A DNA stretch of 64,000 nt from Candidatus Omnitrophota bacterium (lineage in GTDB: Bacteria; Omnitrophota; Gorgyraeia; 1-14-0-20-64-10). The notes below the pieces were generated by a model that was given only the letters and a program-made list of their open reading frames with translations, was not told where the DNA came from and ran no database searches. The stretch lies in NCBI GenBank assembly GCA_023248155.1, contig JAHFFE010000001.1:20873-84872 (forward strand), in the 5' to 3' direction. This document shows positions 11,120-58,907 of the stretch, piece after piece; position 1 is the stretch's first letter; every line of letters starts with the position of its first letter. A program made the translations under genes and the position numbers.

Positions 11120-11657
11120 GCGCCAAGATAATTTGATGTAAGGCCAGAAGCCGCTTCACCCCATCCGTAATATTACGGCACGAAAGCGTTGCCCCCGAAA
11201 TGTTTGGAATGTCCACCTCCAGCTTGAACGGGTCGCTGAGCGATTTCCCTTTAAAATGGCCTCTCCACTCGGCGTCCCGAACTTCTCCTCCGTGGGTTTC
11301 GCGATAACTCAAAATTTCAACGCCGATCACTTTTCCGTCGGCGGATAAGGCGGCGGCATAAGTAATAAATTCGTGCTTGCCGATCACCTCATCCACGATG
11401 AACCACCCCAAGAAACCACCCGCCTTCTCGACCCGCCAGACCCGCTGCTGGTCCCAGCGCTGGCTCATTCCCGAGATCGATTTGATTTGCTTCTTTTGGG
11501 AGGCCGTCAAAAGAACGGTGTGTTCTTTGAAAGTTCCCGCGTCGGGAAACAGCAGCTCTTGCGCCTGCGGAATGGATAGGTAATCCGCCGCGTAAACCGG
11601 GGCCACAATGGCCGCCGGCGACAACAGCGCTATCCGGACCCAGCTGCGCTTGTTCAC
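11103..11657 (-). CDS. Periplasmic FMN-binding domain protein (NqrC/RnfG-like flavinylation target)
   Basis: Signal peptide, then an FMN_bind-like domain carrying the flavinylation motif DIPNISGATLS ([S/T]GA[T/S]). Confidence 0.65.
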   Translation of the reverse strand: MNKRSWVRIALLSPAAIVAPVYAADYLSIPQAQELLFPDAGTFKEHTVLLTASQKKQIKSISGMSQRWDQQRVWRVEKAGGFLGWFIVDEVIGKHEFITYAAALSADGKVIGVEILSYRETHGGEVRDAEWRGHFKGKSLSDPFKLEVDIPNISGATLSCRNITDGVKRLLALHQIILAHESGD

Positions 11658-11659
11658 GA

Positions 11660-12562
11660 CTAAAAGTTAAAGCCGACTTTCAAGCGGACTTCTTGCTTGG
11701 TCTTTTCAATGAGGTGCAGATTGGAAATCGACTGATCCGCATATTCCTCGCCGCCTCCCGCGACCTGAGGGAACCAGGTCAGAGTCGCCCACCATTTCGA
11801 CCCGCCGTAATGGAGTGACGGCCCGGCAAACAAGCTCCATCGCTCCTGCCCCACCTCGGTCTCGAATTCCGTTTCATACAGCGTTTCCGCGCCGATAAAC
11901 CAGTTGGGGGCAAAGCGATAACTCAGTCCAGTCCCCAATTTAAATTCGAGTTCTACTTCAGGGTTTGTCGTCCATTCAAAATCCGTGGGCAGATCGTCAA
12001 TCTCACCCCGGACGGCATAAGTCCCCTCGGTGGCCGCATTCCAAACCCAAATCAGCTGCCCTTCCATAAAATATTTCTGAAGCTGGAGCCCCGTTTCGAG
12101 GGAAGCGGTATCTTTTTTTCGGCCCGAATGAGGATCCAGCCAGGCGTAGTCCAATCCAAGAGTGCCGGACAAACCGATATTGTCTTTTGCCGGGGCCAGG
12201 AAATTGTACTTCAGCGCCGCTTCCATCCCGGAAAGTTTAGGCCCATACTCCTTGTCACCAGGCAAATATCCGTCGATGACCAGCCCTTTGGTGTCAATGC
12301 TCTGAAAATTCAAGCCGCCGGTTGCCGATAAACGATGGGTGACGCCGTATTCCGCTTCGGCTTCCAGATTCCAAGCCGTGTAATCACCCCTGCCTTTGCC
12401 CGACCTGAGCGTGGTCACCTCATAGAGTTCCCATGCCCCTTTCGGCAGCGTTTCGGATCCCTTCACATAACCAAACAGGTTTTCGTCGGCAAATGCCGAT
12501 GATGCGAAAACTGCCACGCCCAGACACAACGCGAACCATTTCAAAAACTTCGTTAACTTCAT
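11660..12562 (-). CDS. Outer-membrane beta-barrel protein
   Basis: 300 aa with a signal peptide, alternating amphipathic beta-strand periodicity and a C-terminal ...KVGFNF ending in an aromatic residue. It heads the FMN-binding and ApbE operon. Confidence 0.5.
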   Translation of the reverse strand: MKLTKFLKWFALCLGVAVFASSAFADENLFGYVKGSETLPKGAWELYEVTTLRSGKGRGDYTAWNLEAEAEYGVTHRLSATGGLNFQSIDTKGLVIDGYLPGDKEYGPKLSGMEAALKYNFLAPAKDNIGLSGTLGLDYAWLDPHSGRKKDTASLETGLQLQKYFMEGQLIWVWNAATEGTYAVRGEIDDLPTDFEWTTNPEVELEFKLGTGLSYRFAPNWFIGAETLYETEFETEVGQERWSLFAGPSLHYGGSKWWATLTWFPQVAGGGEEYADQSISNLHLIEKTKQEVRLKVGFNF

Positions 12563-24840: not shown

Positions 24841-26145
24841 TTAGTATTTTTGGATCCCCGCGGGCAGCTCCGGAATAATTCCCATCTTCGCGTAAATCGG
24901 CCGAATGATCTGGCGCAGCGTCGGCAGCTGCCGCACAAAAACCAGCGCGCCCAGAACGCAGCCGCTGCCGGCTAATAAAAGCGCCGTTGAGATGCCGGCG
25001 TGATCGGCGACAAACCCGGTCAGTAAACTTCCCCACGGCATCATGCCCATGAACGCCATGGTGTACAGGCTCATCACGCGGCCGCGCTTGTCGTCATCCA
25101 CCAATGTTTGCAATACGGTATTCGCGGCAGCCAGCTGAACGATCATTGAAAATCCGGCCGCGGCCAGCAGCACCAGCGCCAGCCAGAACGGGCGCGCCAC
25201 CGCGAACCCGATCAACGCCGCTCCAAATAAAACCGAGGCCGCGGCAATCAGCCGGACCAATCCGCGCACGTTCCGGCGCGACGCCAGAAAAATCGCGCCG
25301 GCCAGCGAACCAACGCCCGACGCGCTCATTAAAAACCCCAGCGTGTGCGGGCCGCCGTGAAAAACATCGCGCGCGGCCATCGGCATTAAAACCGCGTACG
25401 GCAAACCCACTAAGCTGACGAACGCCACCAGAAGCAAGATCGACCGGATCGGCACGAATTTAACGGCATACGAAACGCCTTCCATCATTCCTTTGATCAA
25501 TCCGGTTTTGGAAGCAGCCGTTTTGGGACCCAGATTCCGCATCGCCAGCAGCGTCCAGATGACAGCGATGTAACTGACGCCGTCGATCAGAAAACAGGTC
25601 CCCTCGCCGCCGGCAGCGATCACAAATCCGGCGATGGCCGGACCGATCAGCCGCGCGCCGTTGAACATTGATGAATTCAACGCGATCGCGTTGCTTAAAT
25701 CGTTCCGGTGGTCAATCATCTGCACCACGAACGCCTGCCGCGCCGGAACATCAAATGCATTAACCAATCCCTGCAGAACGCTCAAGCAGGCTATCTGCGT
25801 GACGGTAATCCGGCCGGAGATCGCCAAAAAGGCCAGCGTCAGCGACTGCACCATTGAAATGATCTGCGTGGTAATTAAAATACGGCGGCAATCGTTGCGG
25901 TCGCTCCAAAGCCCGCCCAGCGGAGCCAGAAGAAACGTGGCAATCTGTCCGGTAAACCCCACGATTCCCAGCCAAAGCGCGGAACCGGTTAAGCGGTAGA
26001 CCAGCCAGCCGGTCGCCACCTGCGTCATCCAGGTACCGGTCAACGAAATGCTCTGCCCGAAAAAAAAGAGCCGGTAGTTGCGGTATTTGAGCGCGCGCCC
26101 AATCACGCCCAGTTTTATCAAATTAAGAAAACCGGGCTTTCTCAA
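24841..26145 (-). CDS. MFS transporter
   Basis: 434 aa with 12 predicted TM helices and the MFS signature LGGLWSDRNDCRR after TM2. Confidence 0.75.
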   Translation of the reverse strand: MRKPGFLNLIKLGVIGRALKYRNYRLFFFGQSISLTGTWMTQVATGWLVYRLTGSALWLGIVGFTGQIATFLLAPLGGLWSDRNDCRRILITTQIISMVQSLTLAFLAISGRITVTQIACLSVLQGLVNAFDVPARQAFVVQMIDHRNDLSNAIALNSSMFNGARLIGPAIAGFVIAAGGEGTCFLIDGVSYIAVIWTLLAMRNLGPKTAASKTGLIKGMMEGVSYAVKFVPIRSILLLVAFVSLVGLPYAVLMPMAARDVFHGGPHTLGFLMSASGVGSLAGAIFLASRRNVRGLVRLIAAASVLFGAALIGFAVARPFWLALVLLAAAGFSMIVQLAAANTVLQTLVDDDKRGRVMSLYTMAFMGMMPWGSLLTGFVADHAGISTALLLAGSGCVLGALVFVRQLPTLRQIIRPIYAKMGIIPELPAGIQKY

Positions 26146-26797
26146 TCCGGTTCAAGCTTTCTTGTTTATGGATTCGTTCGTCCAGTCCGATGCGGCGAAA
26201 CAAATCGGCCAGCGATGGATAACAACCGTACTCCTGCTCAAAATCGCTGATGAACGGTTCCTTTTCAAACGCCGGATTTTCCTCGACCAGCAGCATATAT
26301 TCGTGTTCGGCATGGTCTTCAAAATCCGCGTTAAGCCCATAGCTCCAAGACGGCCGGATCACATAAAGCAGCCAGCTGATCTGATAATAAACGAACGCGA
26401 TGATTTGCGGAACAACGCGGTAGAGCAGAAAATTTTCGGAAATCTCCCTGCGCTGGACCAGTTCTTCCAGAATGAGCAGGTGCCATTGTTCATTGTCCTG
26501 CTGGGCGCGCGCTTCTTTGATGAATTCGAAGATGCGGCGGGCAAAATTGGGCATGCTGTAGGTGTGCGTCATCGCAATGTAAGCGACATGTTCCCAAGAC
26601 TGGTAAGGAACGCGGGCGATCAGCTCCAGAACCTTGAATTTCGAGAGTGTGCGCTCGCGGCCGTAAAAAAGATCCATCGTGATGAACAACAGGCGGGCCG
26701 GCAGTCCGTAATTGCGGCGCGGCGCCGCCAGCGTGGCGCGCTGTTCGGCTCTTAGAAGTGCGGGGTCTCTTACGAAAAATGCGTCGGGCGGTTCCAT
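26123..26797 (-). CDS. Alternative oxidase (AOX/PTOX-like di-iron carboxylate protein)
   Basis: Four candidate iron-binding motifs: LELIARVPY, NEQWHLLILEEL (compare NERMHL), ADFEDHAEHEY (compare LEEEAxH) and LDERIHK (compare RADEAHH). The start is taken at the internal MEPPDAFF to avoid overlapping the upstream gene. Confidence 0.5.
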   Translation of the reverse strand: MEPPDAFFVRDPALLRAEQRATLAAPRRNYGLPARLLFITMDLFYGRERTLSKFKVLELIARVPYQSWEHVAYIAMTHTYSMPNFARRIFEFIKEARAQQDNEQWHLLILEELVQRREISENFLLYRVVPQIIAFVYYQISWLLYVIRPSWSYGLNADFEDHAEHEYMLLVEENPAFEKEPFISDFEQEYGCYPSLADLFRRIGLDERIHKQESLNRIEKARFS

Positions 26798-29622: not shown

Positions 29623-30678
29623 CTATGATGAAATCGCGACACCCTTCCTGACCAACAGGTCCCGCACTCCGCGAATCACAGGGAATATTTCCTGGTTCCA
29701 GTCGGCGCCCTGGTTATCGTGCGCTTTCTGTTCCAGCTCCATAATCCAGCGGTCCTCGGCAAAAATACCGTCGGTAAACCAGACGATCGCCGGCCAGAGC
29801 AGATGGATCAGTCCGGGAATCGATGGTTTGCGGATCATCATCAATCCAAAGCTGTGGTTTGCTTTTTGCGCACGGTCGGTCGGCACATAGGCCAGCCAAA
29901 GATCGAGCGACGGTTTCTCCTGCTCGGCGCTGGTAAACTGCAGCGTCTGATACGGGTATTGCGTGCGGATCGTCATTAAATCATGCTCGCGCAGCTTGGC
30001 CGCTCCCTCTTTCTTGCCGATCATGAACCGCTCGCCCAGCGACTGCTTTCCGCTCACGCGCTTGAAGGTGTACGAAGCTTCAAACCAGTCGTCACCTGAT
30101 TTGGAACCCAGCAGCGTGGGCCGAATCCCTCCCATCAACTTGCGGTGCAGAAACTGGTGATTCATATCGAGCAGATTTTCATGCATGAAGGAGTAGTGGC
30201 ACTTTACGTCGCGGTCAAGAATTCGCGTTTTATAATGGGGATCCTTCTGTGAGGGAACCTCGGGAAACCGTCCCTCAGCCTTGGCCGGGTCGCCCGGAAA
30301 AATAAACAGAAGCCCGTACGCTTCGCGGCACGGATAACTTCGGACGCCATTGGGAAGCGCCTCCCGTTTGTCGAGATAAGGAACGCCGATGCATTTGCCG
30401 GACTTATCGTAGGTCCATCCATGATACCCGCAGCGGATCTGTTCTCCGGCTACGACGCCGACGCTGAGCGGAACCTGCCGATGCGCGCAGCGGTCTTCCA
30501 GCGCAAAAAGAGCGCCGGTTTTGGCGCGAACAATGACAATCGGCTCGCCGGCAAATACGGCGGCGATCGCCTTGCCGGGCTTGAGCTTATGCGAGCGGGC
30601 TACAGGATACCAGTAATCGCGGTCAATGCCGGCTTTTCGCAGGTCGATAATATCAGTCGGACGCATGGTTGTTTCCAC
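29623..30678 (-). CDS. Rieske [2Fe-2S] non-haem iron oxygenase (PaO/Tic55-like)
   Basis: Rieske motif CAHRQVPLS...CGYHGW (CxH-x16-CxxH) and a mononuclear iron motif ENLLDMNHQFLHRK (E/D-x3-D-x2-H-x4-H). Confidence 0.7.
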   Translation of the reverse strand: METTMRPTDIIDLRKAGIDRDYWYPVARSHKLKPGKAIAAVFAGEPIVIVRAKTGALFALEDRCAHRQVPLSVGVVAGEQIRCGYHGWTYDKSGKCIGVPYLDKREALPNGVRSYPCREAYGLLFIFPGDPAKAEGRFPEVPSQKDPHYKTRILDRDVKCHYSFMHENLLDMNHQFLHRKLMGGIRPTLLGSKSGDDWFEASYTFKRVSGKQSLGERFMIGKKEGAAKLREHDLMTIRTQYPYQTLQFTSAEQEKPSLDLWLAYVPTDRAQKANHSFGLMMIRKPSIPGLIHLLWPAIVWFTDGIFAEDRWIMELEQKAHDNQGADWNQEIFPVIRGVRDLLVRKGVAISS

Positions 30679-30681
30679 GCT

Positions 30682-31359
30682 TTATTGTACCATTTCAATT
30701 TGCAGATGCATTAGGTTGCCGCTTCCCTGCTTCTCATAGCCATTCATCTGAATGGGGTTATTAAAACCCGGCCCGTCCAGAACCAGCGTATGGTATTCGC
30801 CGTTCTCTCCGCAAAGGTCCAGTCCGGTTTCCGCGGCAATAACCCGCAGTTGTTGCAGCGTTTCGAGCGTGATTTCTTTTCCCAGCCAGTCGTTTGTAAA
30901 CCACGGTTTTTTTACGCACGAAAAAATGATTTGGAATTTTTTTTCTATGAGCCGGCTCATTAACTCACTTCTATCGCGGCCCCAGAGCGGCGTTACTACC
31001 TCAACACCGGAACCTTGACTGCACTGCCGAATCCAGTTCGGGTGACCCTCTACTTCGGCGATATCACCCGTCACCAGAACTTCAATGCCATACTGTTCGT
31101 TTAAAGAACGGATCGCTCGTTCATACCCATCGCGAAACGGTTCGTGGATAATCATCGTCTGGTGCGGAAGGTTCATCGCTGCGGCCTGAGCTTTCATGAA
31201 ACCAACGGGGTGCGCTAAAAATTCAGCCCGCTCCGGAACAAATGTGACCAGCCGGTCGATCACATATCCGGCCTGACGCGCCTCGTAAAGCGCCAGCCCG
31301 CAATCTTTTCCGCCGGTCCAGGCCACTGCTGTTTTCAAGCTACAGCTGGGCAAGCGCAT
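30682..31359 (-). CDS. PP-loop ATP pyrophosphatase of the diphthine-ammonia ligase (Dph6/MJ0570) family
   Basis: 225 aa with an N-terminal AVAWTGGKDCG (variant SGGKDS PP-loop). The fold pattern resembles the ATP-binding domain 4 family. Confidence 0.55.
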   Translation of the reverse strand: MRLPSCSLKTAVAWTGGKDCGLALYEARQAGYVIDRLVTFVPERAEFLAHPVGFMKAQAAAMNLPHQTMIIHEPFRDGYERAIRSLNEQYGIEVLVTGDIAEVEGHPNWIRQCSQGSGVEVVTPLWGRDRSELMSRLIEKKFQIIFSCVKKPWFTNDWLGKEITLETLQQLRVIAAETGLDLCGENGEYHTLVLDGPGFNNPIQMNGYEKQGSGNLMHLQIEMVQ

Positions 31360-31420: not shown

Positions 31421-31906
31421 CTAACTAAGCCAAAACATACCAAAGCAGGTTGCGCACAGCAAGAGAGCGATCCCCGCAAGGATGGCCAGCCCAACGAAAA
31501 ACCCGGTAACAACACGGCCATATCCTTTTTGTTTCAACCACACGAAAAGAATGATCGTTCCTAGCAAATAAAAAATCCACAGCCAATTAAACGATAGGCT
31601 TCCAAAAAACAAGGGCAAAATAAAATAACTGATAGGCAAGATAGACCATAACGCAAAAAGAGCCATTCCCCGCAATATTTGTTTTCGTTCATCAGGCATT
31701 AATTTTTCATCCTTCTTCCAAGCCATCACGATAAATCCGATTGTAATAAAAAGGAAAATAAGGGAAACATAGAAAGAATTCAATCGCCAGCTCGCCATCA
31801 ATAAATAGAATATATAGAAAAAACCTATTATGATGCTCTTCCATATTAAACCTAGTACCATTCTTGGCGTTTTTTCTTTGTTTTTGTTCTGTGGTTCATC
31901 CGACAT
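31421..31906 (-). CDS. Hypothetical polytopic membrane protein in an AT-rich segment
   Basis: 161 aa with about five TM helices. GC content is visibly lower than its surroundings across ~31560-31900. It overlaps the radical-SAM gene start by 11 nt. Confidence 0.45.
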   Translation of the reverse strand: MSDEPQNKNKEKTPRMVLGLIWKSIIIGFFYIFYLLMASWRLNSFYVSLIFLFITIGFIVMAWKKDEKLMPDERKQILRGMALFALWSILPISYFILPLFFGSLSFNWLWIFYLLGTIILFVWLKQKGYGRVVTGFFVGLAILAGIALLLCATCFGMFWLS

Positions 31907-33323
31907 TGGTTTTCTCCTCCTGTAGGCGGCGGAGCGGGGCTAACCGCGTTTGCTCCAGATCATCCCGATAAAACAGGTTGTAGGTATCAAACGGAATAAG
32001 CCGTCCATCCGGATGCGCAATATGAACACAGGTTTTTTTGACGGATCGGACATCAAATGAATGCGCGTCGATAAACTGCACGATTAAAATGCGAAACAGG
32101 TTTTGATAGGTAATCCCTTGCGGCAGCGCCACTTTCGGCAAACAGCAGAGCAGCTCCTTCAAACGGGAAAGACCCGCTTGGGGGGAGTTGGCTGTTGAGA
32201 ATAATTTGAAAACGCCCTGCCGGACCACATCATCTTTCTCGTAAACAATCGTATTGCGGCCGCCTTCGATAAGGACTTTTGGATCAATCAGTCCGGTCAG
32301 AGGAATCACGCGTCCATTAAGCTTCAATGCGTAGGCCATCGCCAAACTATCCGGATGGCACGGAACCGGTATCAAATCCTCCGGTTTGAAGATCGAACTC
32401 TGTTCCAGAATTTTCCGACGGACTTCAGTGAGTGTAAGCCTGTCGCGCGCTGGATCATACCCTTCCAACCGCCCAGCCGCTTGAATCGGTTGAAATGTAA
32501 CGCCGCGAACGCACGGCTGTTGAACAGCATATTCTATAATTTGACCCAGCTCGCCGTCGTTAAGGCCTTTTTTCAAAGTGACCACCAGCGTGGTGGAAAT
32601 ACCCAGCCGGTTCAACCGCTCCAACGCTTTTTCACGGATGGAACGCAAGTCCGCGCCACGCAATTCTGCAAGCGCCTCTTTGCGAAAAGAATCAAACTGT
32701 AGATAGACTTCAAACCCGGGCATATAGCTGGACAAACGCTTGGCGAATTCCTCGTCCTGCGCGATCCGAATTCCATTGGTGTTAACCATCAAATGCTTGA
32801 TCGGCCGGGTCTTGGCCATATCCAGAATTTTGAAAAAATCGGGGTGCAGTGTCGGTTCCCCGCCAGAGATTTGCACGATGTCCGGTTCTTTCTCGTTGCG
32901 CACGATGGCGTCCAGCATCTTTTCGACCAGCGCAAGGTCCCGGTGTTGAGGGCGCCCCGGCCCGCTGCCTGCATAGCAGATGGGGCATTCCAGGTTGCAG
33001 TGGTCGTTGATTTCCAGCAGCGTGAGGCAGGAATGCTGCTCGTGGTCTGCGCACAATCCGCAATCGTACGGGCAGCCCCATTTAACCGGCGTGTTGAACT
33101 GCATCGGCATTTCGGCCGGCTTAATGAACACCTCGCGGCAGCGGCGGTAATAGTCAATGTCATCGGCAATCAACACTTTTTCGGAGCCATGCTGCGGGCA
33201 GCGTTTCACCATAAAAACATTGCCGTCCTCAAACAGAATTTTGCCCTCAACCTTCTGAAAGCAGGTGGAGCAGATCGAAACTGCTACATCGTAAAAAAGG
33301 TAAGGTCGTACACGTTCGCTCAC
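31896..33323 (-). CDS. Radical-SAM enzyme with N-terminal Cys-rich zinc-ribbon-like extension
   Basis: 475 aa. CNLECPICYA is the CxxxCxxC radical-SAM motif and GGEPTLHP the SAM-binding motif. N-terminal to the core are SICSTCFQ...(19)...CPQHG (a C-x2-C...C-x2-H knuckle pair) and WGCPYDCGLCADHEQHSC. No SPASM or twitch Cys cluster follows. Confidence 0.7.
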   Translation of the reverse strand: MSERVRPYLFYDVAVSICSTCFQKVEGKILFEDGNVFMVKRCPQHGSEKVLIADDIDYYRRCREVFIKPAEMPMQFNTPVKWGCPYDCGLCADHEQHSCLTLLEINDHCNLECPICYAGSGPGRPQHRDLALVEKMLDAIVRNEKEPDIVQISGGEPTLHPDFFKILDMAKTRPIKHLMVNTNGIRIAQDEEFAKRLSSYMPGFEVYLQFDSFRKEALAELRGADLRSIREKALERLNRLGISTTLVVTLKKGLNDGELGQIIEYAVQQPCVRGVTFQPIQAAGRLEGYDPARDRLTLTEVRRKILEQSSIFKPEDLIPVPCHPDSLAMAYALKLNGRVIPLTGLIDPKVLIEGGRNTIVYEKDDVVRQGVFKLFSTANSPQAGLSRLKELLCCLPKVALPQGITYQNLFRILIVQFIDAHSFDVRSVKKTCVHIAHPDGRLIPFDTYNLFYRDDLEQTRLAPLRRLQEEKTNVG

Positions 33324-34072
33324 GATCGGTTGGCCTCCTGCCCATAGAACAACTGTGGAATATCACGGCGATAATAGACCAACACAGCAACACAAACCCA
33401 CTGGATAGCGGTAAGTCCGAGAAATGGAACCGCCGGCTTGAGAAAATCAACAACCAGCCGAAAACCCATGTAGGCCACCATAAACGCCTTGAATAACTCC
33501 CCTTCTCGGTGCGGCTTACGGCCAAGCCGCCAAAGCCAAATCGTCAGTGCAATCATAAAGAGAATCTCGTAGATCTGTACCGGATGACGCAAAATCCCAT
33601 CTCCAAAATCAACCCCCAAGGGAAGTTGGGTTGGTAAGCCAAAAGTGTGATCGCTTAGGCCCGTCAGAAAACAACCGATCCTCCCAATGGCGATTCCTGC
33701 CGCCAAAGGAATCGCGAACAGATCTCCTGTCGGACGAGTCACGCCTATTCGCCGCTTCATCCATTCCACAGCCAGCAATCCTCCGGCCAGCGCTCCAACA
33801 ATCGTTTTCCCGCTAATCAAATAGGCCGGATGATGCCAATTCTTCAGTGTCAGGCCAGGATCTACAAACCAGAAAAGGATTTTGCTTCCGGCCGCCGCCC
33901 CGAGAATTGCCGCGGCAATAATGGTCATCCGCTGGGCATAACCGAGAGTGTCACCGGTGCGGGCGCGCTGCCAGAAATAAATTCGCGCCGCAATAAAATA
34001 GGAGAGCGTCTCAAAAAACAGATGCGGGTGAACTCGCCAAGGACCGATACTCAGATAAACCGGAAATGTCAT
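33320..34072 (-). CDS. Prolipoprotein diacylglyceryl transferase (Lgt) family protein
   Basis: 250 aa with seven predicted TM helices and an Lgt-like RIGCFLTGLSDHTFG (compare G.R.GNF.NGE) and GKTIVGALAGG. Its start overlaps the radical-SAM stop by 4 nt. Confidence 0.65.
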   Translation of the reverse strand: MTFPVYLSIGPWRVHPHLFFETLSYFIAARIYFWQRARTGDTLGYAQRMTIIAAAILGAAAGSKILFWFVDPGLTLKNWHHPAYLISGKTIVGALAGGLLAVEWMKRRIGVTRPTGDLFAIPLAAGIAIGRIGCFLTGLSDHTFGLPTQLPLGVDFGDGILRHPVQIYEILFMIALTIWLWRLGRKPHREGELFKAFMVAYMGFRLVVDFLKPAVPFLGLTAIQWVCVAVLVYYRRDIPQLFYGQEANRS

Positions 34073-34584
34073 TATTTGCCCCGCATAAACAGTATTGTTT
34101 CAAATAGAAAAAGCCCAATCGTGATCAAGATGACCTGCAGGCCAAATCCCGCGGCAGGACGAGGAAGCGTAAGAAGTTCCACGCTCCATTCCGGTTTTAA
34201 TGAAATTACTTTGAGCGTTTCGCGGACAGCGAGCGCAATGATCGCCCCGCTGACGAGCATTGTCAGCATGTGGATCAAATATTCAAGCGGAGGAATCCCG
34301 CCCAAAGAAGAACGGCTCTTCGGTTCCAGAAGAACATCTGTCAACGAATTGATTAGATCGGCTAGCAACAACAGCGGCAGGACAAGGGCATAAACCCCTT
34401 GTGCGTGGACAAACATCACCCACAAAAGAATAGTGAGAAACAAAATTTCGCGAAAGAGATGGGTAATCTGCTCTCCCCGGCTGGAGACTTGCTTATATAA
34501 CCGGAAGCGGTAAATATGAAAATAACCAACATCCAGAACACCTAAAAGCGAAAATCCGCACATCAGATAAAACAAATTCTGCAT
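34072..34584 (-). CDS. Hypothetical polytopic membrane protein
   Basis: 170 aa with about five TM helices. Its stop overlaps the Lgt-like start. No family recognised. Confidence 0.4.
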   Translation of the reverse strand: MQNLFYLMCGFSLLGVLDVGYFHIYRFRLYKQVSSRGEQITHLFREILFLTILLWVMFVHAQGVYALVLPLLLLADLINSLTDVLLEPKSRSSLGGIPPLEYLIHMLTMLVSGAIIALAVRETLKVISLKPEWSVELLTLPRPAAGFGLQVILITIGLFLFETILFMRGK

Positions 34585-34609: not shown

Positions 34610-36055
34610 TTATAACCGGGAAAGCGCATCCACAGCTTCGGCATGGCCCGGATCAAGCGCGATCGCTTTTTGAAACGCCTGTTTGGCTGCGGAGCGATTC
34701 CCCAGGCCCAAATAACACTTGCCGAGCGTTGTAAAAGTTCCGGCATCGTTGCCGCGCACGGCCTGTTTCAGCAGAGGCGCCGCTTCTTTATACCGTTCCT
34801 GTTGGACATACAATTTTCCCAGGCCGGCGTAAGCGGCCCAAATACCCAGGTCCATTTTGATCGCATCCTGATATTCCTGCTCAGCCTGCATATACCGCCC
34901 CCACTGCACATGCACATCGGCCAGTGCCGTGAGCGCTTCGGCATATTCAGGAAAAACTTCCAGCGCCCGCTTAAACTGTTCCTCCGCGGCCAGCCAGTCC
35001 TGCTGCGCGTAATACTTCCGGCCCTCTTCCAAGAAAACAACGGCCCCTTTCCGGTTGTCGAACCGGTTGAGCACCGTCAGTACTTTTTTGACGGTGGGCG
35101 CCTCGGCCACATCATCAATCGCGCGCTGCCCCCGCAAATATTCGGTTACCGTCGTTACCACGCGGATCCGCTCATCATCCACGGGATGCGTGCTGAACAT
35201 CGGCATTCGCAGCAGCGTAAAGGTATCGTATTCTTCCTTGGCTTTTTTGTATTTCTGGGCGGCGGCCCGGCAGCGGTCGTCGCCGCTGCCTTCCGGAATC
35301 GTGGTCGATCCGCAGGCCGATTCCATTTCGTATTTGGCTTCCTGCAGTTTGCTTTCCAGTTTTTGTTTTTGTTCCTCGTCCTTTTTCATCGACCGCTTGA
35401 AGAACCGGATCAACCCCTCCGGATCGTACCCGGCATGGTACGCATCAATCGTGCCGAGAATATCGGCTTCGCGCTCATGCTCGCGCGAATAGGCCGTGAT
35501 CATCATCACAGCGCCGACAGCGGCCATATTGCCGGCATCTTTGTTTTTAGAAAACGCGCCAATCGCCAAAGCCCCCACCTGTCCAAGCAGTTGCGGCAAT
35601 GCCGACCGGCTCTGGTGCCCCGCGTCGACATGACCCAGCTCGTGCGCGAGAATACCAGCCAGTTCGTCGTCGTTCTCCACTTCTTTCAAAAGCTGCGAAA
35701 ACACATACACATACTCGCCGCCGGCGACAAACGCGTTGACCTGTTCCGACTGCAAAATGCGGACGGTTGGATGCAGCTGTTTCTTGTGAACGAACGGGAG
35801 CAGCCGCGCGACGATTGCTTCGGTGCGCGCTTTGGCCGCCGGATCATCGGCCTCCTTAAACTCTTTCATTACTTCCTTGTCAAATTCCTGGACGTTCTTT
35901 CTCTGGGCCTCGGTCAGCTCCTTGCCCAACTCTCGCTCGAGTGCCAGCGGATGAAGATCCATCGCCACCATCATTTCGCGGCGGGCATAGGCCGTGCATC
36001 CTGACGACAACGGTAAAATGGCAAGCAAAACAGCCCAGACAATTTTTTTATGCAC
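34610..36055 (-). CDS. M48-family Zn-metallopeptidase lipoprotein with C-terminal TPR repeats (BepA-like)
   Basis: LSSGC lipobox, HELGHV zincin motif and C-terminal TPR-like repeats (YAEALTALADVHVQWGRYMQAEQEYQDAIKMD...). Confidence 0.75.
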   Translation of the reverse strand: MHKKIVWAVLLAILPLSSGCTAYARREMMVAMDLHPLALERELGKELTEAQRKNVQEFDKEVMKEFKEADDPAAKARTEAIVARLLPFVHKKQLHPTVRILQSEQVNAFVAGGEYVYVFSQLLKEVENDDELAGILAHELGHVDAGHQSRSALPQLLGQVGALAIGAFSKNKDAGNMAAVGAVMMITAYSREHEREADILGTIDAYHAGYDPEGLIRFFKRSMKKDEEQKQKLESKLQEAKYEMESACGSTTIPEGSGDDRCRAAAQKYKKAKEEYDTFTLLRMPMFSTHPVDDERIRVVTTVTEYLRGQRAIDDVAEAPTVKKVLTVLNRFDNRKGAVVFLEEGRKYYAQQDWLAAEEQFKRALEVFPEYAEALTALADVHVQWGRYMQAEQEYQDAIKMDLGIWAAYAGLGKLYVQQERYKEAAPLLKQAVRGNDAGTFTTLGKCYLGLGNRSAAKQAFQKAIALDPGHAEAVDALSRL

Positions 36056-40433: not shown

Positions 40434-40507
40434 TGGTTGCCCCGCCTGGATTCGAACCAGGACAAGCAGATCCAGAATCTGCTGTGCTACCGTTACACCA
40501 CAGGGCA
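40434..40507 (-). tRNA. tRNA-Gln (anticodon CUG)
   Basis: Hand-folded cloverleaf: 7-bp acceptor stem (one G-U pair), D-arm, anticodon stem GCAGA/TCTGC with loop TTCTGGA (anticodon CTG), perfect T-stem CCTGG/CCAGG with TTCGAAT loop, and an encoded CCA. Confidence 0.8.
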
Positions 40508-45768: not shown

Positions 45769-46067
45769 ACTCAATGACCGGCAGCTGGCTGTCCTGCAAA
45801 ATAGTCCGGTGAATTCTTATCCGGAACATCATCGGCATATCATGCCGGACCCTTTAGCTTTGCGTCCCTATCTTTCGATCTGCGCCCTTTTTTCATGTAA
45901 GCGCATTCATCCGGCGCTGTGCCGTATGAAGGTTTGCCGAAAACACGGCCTGAGTTGGCAACCACTTACTACGGGTATTATCCAGGCAAACGAAATATAC
46001 CTGATACTTTTATACAATGGCAAGAGTGCAAAAATATTTTAGTGGAATAAAACTTTATCTAGGGAGG

Positions 46068-58625: not shown

Positions 58626-58783
58626 TCGTTGCCATCAATTCAGGAGAAGGATAAGCCCCGCCTGCGCCGTGTGCGGATGAATCATGAACCTGGTTTGACC
58701 AAGTTGGGAACCCGCTCACCTGTTTCTTGCTTCCCTCCCTCGACGGGTGGGCCTGCACTCCGCAGATGAAGACAAGCTCCCTT

Positions 58784-58811
58784 TTGATTCTGACTGTTGG
58801 TTCAGAATCAA
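58784..58811. promoter_or_regulatory. Perfect 10-bp inverted repeat TTGATTCTGA-N8-TCAGAATCAA in the rarA/HemJ-like divergent intergenic region
   Basis: Read directly from the sequence. It lies about 100 nt upstream of the plus-strand start at 58908. Confidence 0.3.
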
Positions 58812-58907
58812 TCCGCCAAACACGCACGCCACAGGGCCACTTCCCTTATACCACGCCTTTTGCTACAGTAAAAGCGAACTTCGACCCACTAAAAAGGAGG
58901 TTGCGCA

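Follow-up and report, generated by a model that had tools for sequence, protein, structure and literature searches.

The window analysed here, a 64,000-nucleotide (nt) stretch of DNA from a Candidatus Omnitrophota bacterium (assembly GCA_023248155.1, contig JAHFFE010000001.1), carries on its minus strand a compact cluster of four genes encoding an enzyme of the radical S-adenosylmethionine (SAM) type, a relative of the prolipoprotein diacylglyceryl transferase Lgt and two membrane proteins. In the order of transcription, the open reading frames (ORFs) are as follows:

34072-34584, minus strand: memA170, a membrane protein of 170 amino acids (aa) with about five transmembrane (TM) helices and no known family
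33320-34072, minus strand: Lgt-like protein of 250 aa, a putative Lgt paralogue (PF01790) with the seven-TM Lgt fold
31896-33323, minus strand: radical SAM enzyme of 475 aa with a GTG start, assigned to the Tes superfamily (PF23545 and PF04055)
31421-31906, minus strand: memB161, a small Cys-motif membrane protein of 161 aa encoded by an AT-rich gene, matching the profile of the 'downstream' type described below

Consecutive ORFs overlap by 1 nt (TAATG), 4 nt (GTGA) and 11 nt, which confirmed the four-gene arrangement proposed in a first-pass annotation of this DNA. The first gene is preceded by a GGAGG Shine-Dalgarno sequence, and promoter and terminator scans of the cluster returned nothing above background. 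The annotation had described memA170 and memB161 as polytopic membrane proteins of no recognised kind, which held insofar as neither gave a significant match in Pfam or NCBIfam, but not for memB161, which turned out to belong to a conserved Cys-motif class.

Domain analysis of the radical SAM protein identified PF04055 (Radical_SAM, 84 bits) and PF23545 (Zn_ribbon_HMPTM, 57 bits) and detected no SPASM domain with Pfam, so that the annotation's calls of a radical SAM enzyme lacking SPASM, and likewise of an Lgt-family domain (PF01790) in its neighbour, stood. The sole strong relative by sequence in the PDB was 7TOL, the GDGT-MAS/Tes of Methanocaldococcus jannaschii (E=1.5e-67, residues 14-323 and 404-466, ~30% identity), and comparison of folds led to the same structure (E=6e-30), the next radical SAM structure following at 3e-11. 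The AlphaFold model behind this comparison was used for the fold match only, as its alignment is shallow in diversity and its core is confident while the C-terminal part is low (mean pLDDT 63).

Tes has been described to contain a rubredoxin-like Fe site (three Cys and one His), an N-terminal cluster termed [4Fe-4S]N (three Cys and one His), the radical SAM cluster and a C-terminal catalytic [4Fe-4S]C, on a sulfur of which the first lipid radical is trapped (PMC13459092). In the window enzyme, the rubredoxin-like site corresponds to C18/C21/C42/H45, which are invariant in 53 family sequences and present in 60-66 of 67 superfamily representatives, the [4Fe-4S]N site to C84/C88/C91 with H94/H97, and the radical SAM cluster to C109/C113/C116, the latter two sets being likewise invariant in the family and aligning to the 7TOL motifs GCPYDCGLCPNH and RCNLNCPIC. 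The Cys motifs quoted in the first-pass annotation are therefore real, but its view of the Cys-rich N-terminal extension as unusual did not hold: since the ligands match the metal sites of Tes, the extension represents standard Tes architecture, composed of the rubredoxin-like domain and the [4Fe-4S]N site. In the C-terminal half, C322, C393/C394 and C432 are conserved in the family and in most of the 67 superfamily representatives.

Scoring against NCBIfam gave a more graded picture. The Tes model (NF045702) reached 265.4 bits against a cut-off of 450 and aligned to residues 15-324 only. The same 450-bit cut-off was likewise unreached by 10/10 representatives of neighbouring clades. The best full-length hidden Markov model (HMM) alignment, spanning residues 15-452, was obtained with TrsS (NF045646; 312.9 bits, cut-off 490), for which reason the C-terminal domain appears more TrsS-like than Tes-like. 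Residues ~324-404 do not align to Tes and are shorter, the last ~60 residues align to 7TOL, the model of the C-terminal part is of low confidence, and the gene contains no selenocysteine (Sec) codon. Taken together, sequence and predicted fold place the protein in the lipid tail-coupling Tes superfamily rather than among the housekeeping maturases. Some homologues carry the JGI name '7,8-dihydro-6-hydroxymethylpterin dimethyltransferase', which we take to be a legacy annotation of the same M. jannaschii protein. Other members of the superfamily bear C-terminal fusions, such as P0376 (688 aa, DUF5714 with a Tes-like enzyme) and P0324 (716 aa), and fusions of the P0376 kind hint at further partner systems.

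The Lgt-like protein scored 82 bits with PF01790 (Pfam cut-off 24.9) and only 38.7 bits with the lgt equivalog TIGR00544 (cut-off 118.9), two further NCBIfam lgt equivalogs giving 58.8 (334) and 27.4 (428) bits. Its AlphaFold model (pLDDT 90.9) had a single significant match in the PDB, Escherichia coli Lgt (5AZB, E=8.6e-9, TM-score 0.62). To map individual residues, 169 family members were aligned with E. coli Lgt, the latter sequence being checked against the aligned 5AZB segments. Approximately 100% conserved in the family were, in E. coli numbering, R143, R239, Y235, G142, G145 and the motif H196-P-x-Q-x-Y-E, which correspond in the window protein to R131 (R143), R205 (R239), Y201 (Y235) and H163-P-x-Q-x-Y-E. 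In contrast, Y26 is replaced by His (97%), H103 by Val (95%) and N146 by Cys (100%), equivalent to H17, V92 and C134 of the window protein, and the E151-G154/head segment is deleted, E. coli residues ~151-171 being without a counterpart in a protein of 250 instead of 291 aa. Y26, H103, R143, N146, G154 and R239 are absolutely required in E. coli Lgt (PMC13251419); hence four of the six are changed or deleted and only R143 and R239 are kept. The pair Y26H and N146C also marks MSMEG_5408, the second, presumed low-activity Lgt of Mycobacterium smegmatis, and N146C alone occurs in the partly functional Lgt of Leptospira (PMC13251419). Equivalog scores and altered residues therefore indicate a distinct, divergent paralogue rather than canonical Lgt, as the annotation had suspected, and the retained arginines and motif make it very likely that a phosphoglycerolipid is still bound.

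More than 8000 homologues of the radical SAM protein were scored, of which the top 120 were all 73-81% identical and, where named, acidobacterial. A locus scan with one genome per species returned at least 546 loci, and the best 80, which were used for the comparison of neighbourhoods, fell into Terriglobia (including Bryobacterales), Blastocatellia, Vicinamibacteria and Thermoanaerobaculia with radical SAM identities of 68-78%, a level of conservation that appears unusually strong for a non-housekeeping enzyme; the family as a whole comprises thousands of proteins sharing 70-80% identity throughout the Acidobacteriota classes. Copies at 73-76% identity in metagenome-assembled genomes (MAGs) labelled as Halobacteriales archaeon, Elusimicrobiota, Baltobacteraceae and Planctomycetota (loci L008, L012, L019, L020, L046 and L048) probably reflect wrongly binned acidobacterial contigs or, failing this, recent transfers.

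In 73/79 assessable species-level loci, the immediate upstream neighbour of the radical SAM gene, on the same strand, is the lgt-like gene. The pairing is kept at 45% identity (L085, L088), and at 39% identity (L089) the order is reversed, with radical SAM followed by LGT, which indicates that adjacency outlived rearrangement. An exhaustive search of representative sequences furthermore uncovered a natural fusion (P0246, 733 aa) in which an Lgt-like domain with H17 and the motif GRVGC is joined through a Pro/Ala linker of ~40 residues to a complete Tes-like enzyme. A gene-calling artefact was ruled out, as three non-identical versions occur on three contigs, each with the ~40-aa linker. Since the C-terminus of Lgt is cytoplasmic, the Fe-S enzyme would, in the fusion, sit at the paralogue's cytoplasmic side. 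In relatives, the module has lipid-related neighbours, being flanked by a ceramidase and alpha/beta hydrolases (L083, 1836-4607), by a PLD-type (PLDc_2) enzyme and a hydrolase (L088, 7543-9937) or by an ArsP-type permease and an ICMT/PEMT methyltransferase-domain protein (L089, 3001-5408), and a 40% relative in a DsbD/methyltransferase context (L086) occurs without an lgt-like partner.

That the lgt-like gene is simply the canonical lgt of the organism, placed beside an unrelated radical SAM gene by chance, would agree with its PF01790 score above the Pfam threshold, with the name prolipoprotein diacylglyceryl transferase that several databases give to such proteins and with the finding that the 64-kb window contains no second PF01790-like ORF. 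We regard this explanation as extremely unlikely, given scores far under all lgt equivalog cut-offs, altered essential residues, fusions and an adjacency that persists despite changed gene order; NCBI itself labels some members merely 'family protein'. Somewhat less remote, yet still very improbable, is a TrsS-like or other non-lipid chemistry of the radical SAM enzyme, for example on a metalloid or selenium, with the Lgt-like protein as a generic membrane partner. The full-length match to TrsS instead of Tes would fit such a role, as would the DsbD-like, methyltransferase, ArsP and ICMT/PEMT genes adjoining the distant relatives, but the TrsS score remains far under its cut-off, the 80 acidobacterial loci contain no selenium or metalloid genes, the conserved partner is predicted to be a phospholipid-binding enzyme, and the literature searched offered no published function for TrsS beyond a table entry.

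The pair is commonly accompanied by a third component. Positional analysis showed small hydrophobic ORFs at equivalent positions, from which iterated profiles then defined two families. The 'downstream' type (~90-130 aa, three TM helices) ends in ...KG-x-x-I-x-A-x-I-x-F-L-L-N-A-x-C-x-G, with only ~10 residues following the Cys. Its 37 hits come from 24 loci and without exception directly follow the radical SAM gene, whose stop codon they often overlap; tandem sets of 2-3 copies are frequent. The 'between' type (~70-130 aa) has a basic N-terminus and a TM helix ending in ...L-x-G-G-S-C-F-G-F, followed by a second TM helix. It was likewise hit 37 times, in 29 loci, and every hit lies either between the paired genes or just upstream of them; its motif also forms the N-terminus of ~270-aa proteins with seven TM helices. 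The two types never co-occur, and a scan of 9334 ORFs returned no profile hit for either type among the ~9300 ORFs outside the operons. The Cys is invariant, carries small residues at -1 and -2 and is preceded by a median of 17-18 uncharged residues after a segment of net charge +2/+3, an arrangement that corresponds in sequence to the signal-peptide-plus-lipobox geometry recognised by Lgt. A PROSITE-like lipobox core is fitted by 72% of 'between' proteins and by 32% of 'downstream' proteins, compared with 1.5% of control Cys, and the operon zone holds an 11.5-fold excess of generic lipobox-like ORFs (Fisher p~1e-28).

Loci without profile hits hold variants, namely Vicinamibacteria proteins with a C-terminal ...GxC... 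helix and seven-TM proteins with ...LLSMCAAQGG, and three distant loci each have a small three-TM protein ending in small-small-Cys that adjoins the pair. Pfam and NCBIfam assigned no family to the small Cys proteins or to the seven-TM 'between' proteins. Two families of ~270-330 aa with seven to eight TM helices and no Pfam match, c7 (L011, L020, L022, L044) and c19 (L039, L045, L059, L075, L077, L078), sit between the lgt-like and radical SAM genes and show an N-terminal ...SSCVGFL... or ...LLSMCAAQGG.... They look as if a small Cys protein had been fused to a larger membrane domain.

In the window this component is represented by memB161. Residues 61-159 (nt 31430-31726) form a three-TM module that matches the profile built from other loci with E=2.5e-22 (6e-11 and 2e-4 with earlier 'downstream' profiles) and ends in ...KQKGYGRVVTG-[TM]-LLLC151ATC154FG, with Cys154 in the conserved position. 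The profile searches thus overturned the impression of a lineage-specific orphan, and we regard memB161 as a fast-evolving member of the conserved third component. Its residues 1-60 (31727-31906, minus strand) resemble the acidic N-terminus and first two helices of the module, which suggests a partial tandem duplication fused in frame, and Met61 and Met70 are possible alternative starts that would yield a typical protein of ~92-101 aa. The other membrane protein, memA170, appears to be a rare, lineage-restricted accessory: it has 10 homologues in 5.8 billion proteins, it was absent from the 80 other loci (tblastn, 1e-5), and in the nearest relatives its homologues occupy varying positions in the cluster (L084, 58% identity, upstream; L083, 41%, downstream). 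Of the co-conservation on which the annotation had relied, the lgt-like/radical SAM pair and a small Cys protein therefore stand, whereas the four-gene set does not: at 1e-5, tblastn hits to memA170, to memB161 and to every flanking gene were confined to identical contigs.

The small Cys genes could also be read as precursors in a dedicated pathway of protein lipidation and maturation that makes no bulk lipid, in which the paralogue lipidates the small proteins and the radical SAM enzyme modifies the lipoprotein or its lipid in another way, such as a thioether or cross-link, towards a specialised lipopeptide or anchor. Precursor-like genes in 2-3 tandem copies beside a radical SAM enzyme are indeed reminiscent of loci for ribosomally synthesised and post-translationally modified peptides (RiPPs), and the short tail after the Cys of the 'downstream' type points in the same direction. 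Nevertheless, we consider this quite improbable, as the enzyme lacks a SPASM, twitch or RiPP recognition element (RRE) domain for peptide recognition, a lipid-tail coupling enzyme leads its structural matches by 19 orders of magnitude, and the Cys is predicted to be periplasmic, beyond reach of a cytoplasmic Fe-S enzyme. In addition, the small proteins diverge while the radical SAM enzyme stays 70-80% identical from class to class, not the usual pattern for a peptide-specific maturase.

Based on these observations, we tentatively propose, with a confidence somewhat below even, that the core of the cluster is a three-part membrane-associated machine coupling lipid tails into a membrane-spanning lipid, possibly on protein-anchored diacylglycerol. 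The Lgt paralogue, an integral membrane protein, would bind a phosphatidylglycerol-type lipid through its two conserved arginines, the Tes-like enzyme would dock on the cytoplasmic face of the paralogue, to whose cytoplasmic C-terminus it is fused in some organisms, and the small protein or proteins would present the invariant Cys where an in-to-out helix, itself preceded by a basic segment, reaches its outer end, in the geometry that Lgt recognises. The paralogue may then move the diacylglyceryl group from phosphatidylglycerol onto this Cys, or at least hold the lipid. Using two SAM-derived radicals and a C-terminal [4Fe-4S] cluster, as Tes does, the Tes-like enzyme would link an iso-branched acyl chain, through its terminal methyl, to the terminal methyl of a chain in the opposite leaflet, and the product would be a membrane-spanning chain of the iso-diabolic acid (iso-DA) type. 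Iso-DA is the omega-omega dimer of iso-C15:0. The first-pass annotation had raised membrane-spanning-lipid or lipoprotein tailoring as a hypothesis, and its interpretation is partly supported overall: since the pairing is so strongly conserved, and even fused, this idea is the best-supported direction.

Previous studies provide a frame for such a role. Tes couples the terminal carbons of isopropyl-ended chains via a cluster-sulfur adduct (PMC13459092), and bacterial Tes homologues have been proposed, though unproven, as the enzymes of glycerol dialkyl glycerol tetraethers of the branched type (brGDGTs) or iso-DA (PMC8941075; PMC11868695). Acidobacteria are without Mss, so that an alternative pathway has been postulated, and under strict criteria a 'Tes homologue' was found in only 3/14 iso-DA producers (PMC13159169). 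Reported homologues include a weak one in Edaphobacter aggregans (32% identity, 4e-61) and two in Candidatus Solibacter usitatus (PMC8941075); the radical SAM family of the window almost certainly fits the weak class of acidobacterial Tes homologue already noticed, to which the E. aggregans protein and the second S. usitatus homologue belong. We regard the module as the leading candidate for the membrane-spanning-lipid synthase of Acidobacteria, with iso-DA as its presumed product. The literature searched contained no paper linking Lgt or a diacylglyceryl transferase with tetraether synthase, brGDGT, iso-diabolic acid or radical SAM. The families of the components are not new, and earlier work had already picked out the radical SAM clade as a 'Tes homologue'. 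Undescribed so far, as far as can be told, are its obligate pairing with an Lgt paralogue of the Y26H/N146C kind, the natural fusion of the two and the Cys-motif proteins confined to these operons.

A more specific version of the proposal concerns where the lipid is assembled. Acidobacterial iso-DA is freed only by hydrolysis of cells or of the Bligh-Dyer residue, whereas the Mss-made iso-DA lipids of Bacillota are extractable phosphatidylglycerol (PG) lipids (PMC13274423). A protein-bound, thioether-linked diacylglyceryl group with ester-bound chains would explain this hydrolysis-only release, which in turn favours a paralogue that loads or positions diacylglycerol on the Cys together with a trans-bilayer coupling by the Tes-like enzyme. 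Such an assembly of iso-DA on protein, in which the paralogue S-diacylglycerylates the Cys of the small protein in the outer leaflet and the Tes-like enzyme welds an acyl tail to the tail of an inner-leaflet phospholipid, is speculative and, on present evidence, unlikely. If true, a protein-tethered membrane-spanning lipid would represent a lipoprotein of a new kind, and bacteria would have a new way of making monolayer-type membranes.

Slightly more probable than this, although we still rate it as rather unlikely, is that the module makes a free membrane-spanning lipid, the paralogue being an inactive dock and phospholipid-presenting subunit and the small Cys proteins having structural or regulatory functions. 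In its favour, the paralogue departs from E. coli Lgt at three or four essential residues and has no head domain, the part that deals with the protein substrate. The fusion and the tight adjacency demonstrate a physical complex without demonstrating catalysis, and in a considerable minority of loci no small Cys protein can be recognised. Against a free lipid, the Cys of the small proteins is invariant within a geometry that specifically mimics a Lgt substrate, the invariance of C134 and H17 in the paralogue points to an active site that is kept up and not to one in decay, and the non-extractability of acidobacterial iso-DA would be left unexplained.

Several points weigh against the proposed tail-coupling machine as such. 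The score of the radical SAM enzyme lies below the Tes cut-off, and with the HMM stopping at residue 324 its lipid-pocket/C-terminal domain differs in a region where the model is of low confidence. S. usitatus, the best-correlated brGDGT producer, has a closer Tes homologue (40% identity) that may do the coupling instead. The topology is awkward, as the Lgt active site and the conserved Cys are periplasmic and the Fe-S enzyme cytoplasmic, and the Lgt copy of M. smegmatis with the Y26H/N146C signature is presumed to be of low activity. No small Cys protein was detected by the criteria used in 18 to 28 of 81 loci, memB161 itself fails the strict lipobox core with L or T at -1, and a 44%-identical relative (L087) lacks an lgt-like neighbour. 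Moreover, the module also occurs in Thermoanaerobaculia MAGs, and the cultured member of this class is reported not to make iso-DA.

The interest of the module lies in the prospect that a long-standing question of lipid biogeochemistry becomes a three-gene experiment. Branched GDGTs, together with the iso-diabolic acid from which they are built, count among the terrestrial proxies in widest use for palaeotemperature and pH, and the chain-joining enzyme of Acidobacteria, the only cultured producers, is still missing about twenty years after the discovery of these lipids. The three genes offer a concrete genetic target and a better metagenome marker of producers than 'any Tes homologue'. They also offer a mechanistic idea for the non-extractability of acidobacterial iso-DA and point to a function for the widespread second-copy Lgt variants with Y26H and N146C.

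The AT-rich patch in which the annotation had seen a hint of horizontal acquisition is real: the GC content of the memB161 gene is 0.385, compared with 0.551 for the window. Under the codon usage of the window, its amino-acid composition would predict 0.462, which accounts for only about half of the deficit and rules out a purely compositional origin, and GC at third codon positions (GC3) is genuinely low (0.451 versus 0.631 +/- 0.051 in 32 reference ORFs). The skew is thus in part a consequence of a composition rich in Phe, Ile, Leu, Tyr and Lys and in part a true codon-level deviation. It follows that the low GC is only weak evidence for horizontal transfer, since a small membrane protein that evolves fast and has a biased amino-acid composition would account for it no less well. 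The observation behind the annotation's suggestion thus stood, while transfer itself is only weakly indicated.

The genes flanking the cluster, including an M48/TPR protease, Tag, a Dph6-like protein, a Rieske oxygenase and an ABC-F protein, were rejected as members of the system, as they are not conserved beside the lgt-like/radical SAM pair. The M48/TPR protease (34610-36055, minus strand), directly upstream of the cluster, starts with MHKKIVWAVLLAILPLSSGC, a canonical lipobox, and in the two nearest relatives the gene just upstream of the lgt-like gene likewise encodes a lipobox protein, namely a 208-aa protein of no assigned function in L084 (2232-2858; ...LLSSAC) and a Peptidase_C92 in L083 (4618-5241; ...YVSGC). 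This may be coincidence, because lipoproteins are common. The Rieske/VanA_C oxygenase adjoins the Dph6-like ATP pyrophosphatase (29623-30678 and 30682-31359, both minus strand) and shows a sub-threshold match to SdmA, the bacterial sterol 4beta-methyl monooxygenase (189 bits, cut-off 600); elsewhere neither gene is conserved beside the module. An alternative oxidase domain gene (PF01786, AOX) with a response regulator nearby was mapped to about 26123-26797 (minus strand) from positions 11602-12276 of the identical contig L001; alternative oxidase is uncommon in bacteria. Rfam searches additionally identified a 6S RNA (58651-58840, 85 bits), a borderline c-di-GMP-I riboswitch (45777-45896, 37.8 bits, gathering score 35) and a tRNA-Gln(CTG) (40434-40507), all on the minus strand.

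Comparison with known systems revealed the closest agreement with Tes/GDGT-MAS (7TOL, NF045702), which shares the domain order and the metal-site motifs, conserved Cys occurring in the C-terminal part as well, is the top match in sequence and fold by a wide margin, and has a proposed chemistry, the coupling of two isopropyl-terminated chains, that is precisely what iso-diabolic acid would need. Unlike Tes, the window enzyme comes from a bacterial host with ester-linked acyl lipids, shares only ~30% identity (265 vs 450 bits) and has the Lgt paralogue and small Cys proteins as obligatory partners, an association not known for Tes. The bacterial 'Tes homologues' considered for brGDGTs (Zeng 2022; Chen 2022; Halamka 2022) have been assigned the same hypothetical role in membrane-spanning lipid synthesis, but they were treated as stand-alone enzymes with a focus on the closer (40%) proteins of S. 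usitatus and Candidatus Koribacter versatilis, and the papers searched make no mention of an Lgt partner, of a fusion or of small Cys proteins. TrsS, a radical SAM (seleno)protein (NF045646), gives the best full-length HMM alignment, whereas the window enzyme stays at 313 bits, under the 490 cut-off, and has no Sec codon.

With E. coli Lgt (5AZB/5AZC), the paralogue has in common the fold, R143, R239, Y235, G142, G145, HPxQxYE and probably the lipid donor, while it differs in Y26H, H103V, N146C, the deletion of the E151-G154/head segment, its length of 250 aa and its likely acceptors, which would be small helical-hairpin or three-TM proteins instead of secreted prolipoproteins; the Y26H and N146C signature itself is shared with MSMEG_5408 of M. 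smegmatis. Finally, Mss of Thermotoga and Thermoanaerobacter (Sahonero-Canavesi 2022) is likewise a radical SAM enzyme that forms tail-to-tail C-C bonds between acyl chains and would thus fulfil an analogous function in other phyla. It belongs, however, to a different radical SAM family that is reported absent from acidobacterial genomes and restricted to anaerobes (PMC13159169), its products are solvent-extractable PG lipids (PMC13274423), and no Lgt partner has been reported for it, setting it apart from the Lgt-paired, Tes-like module proposed here.

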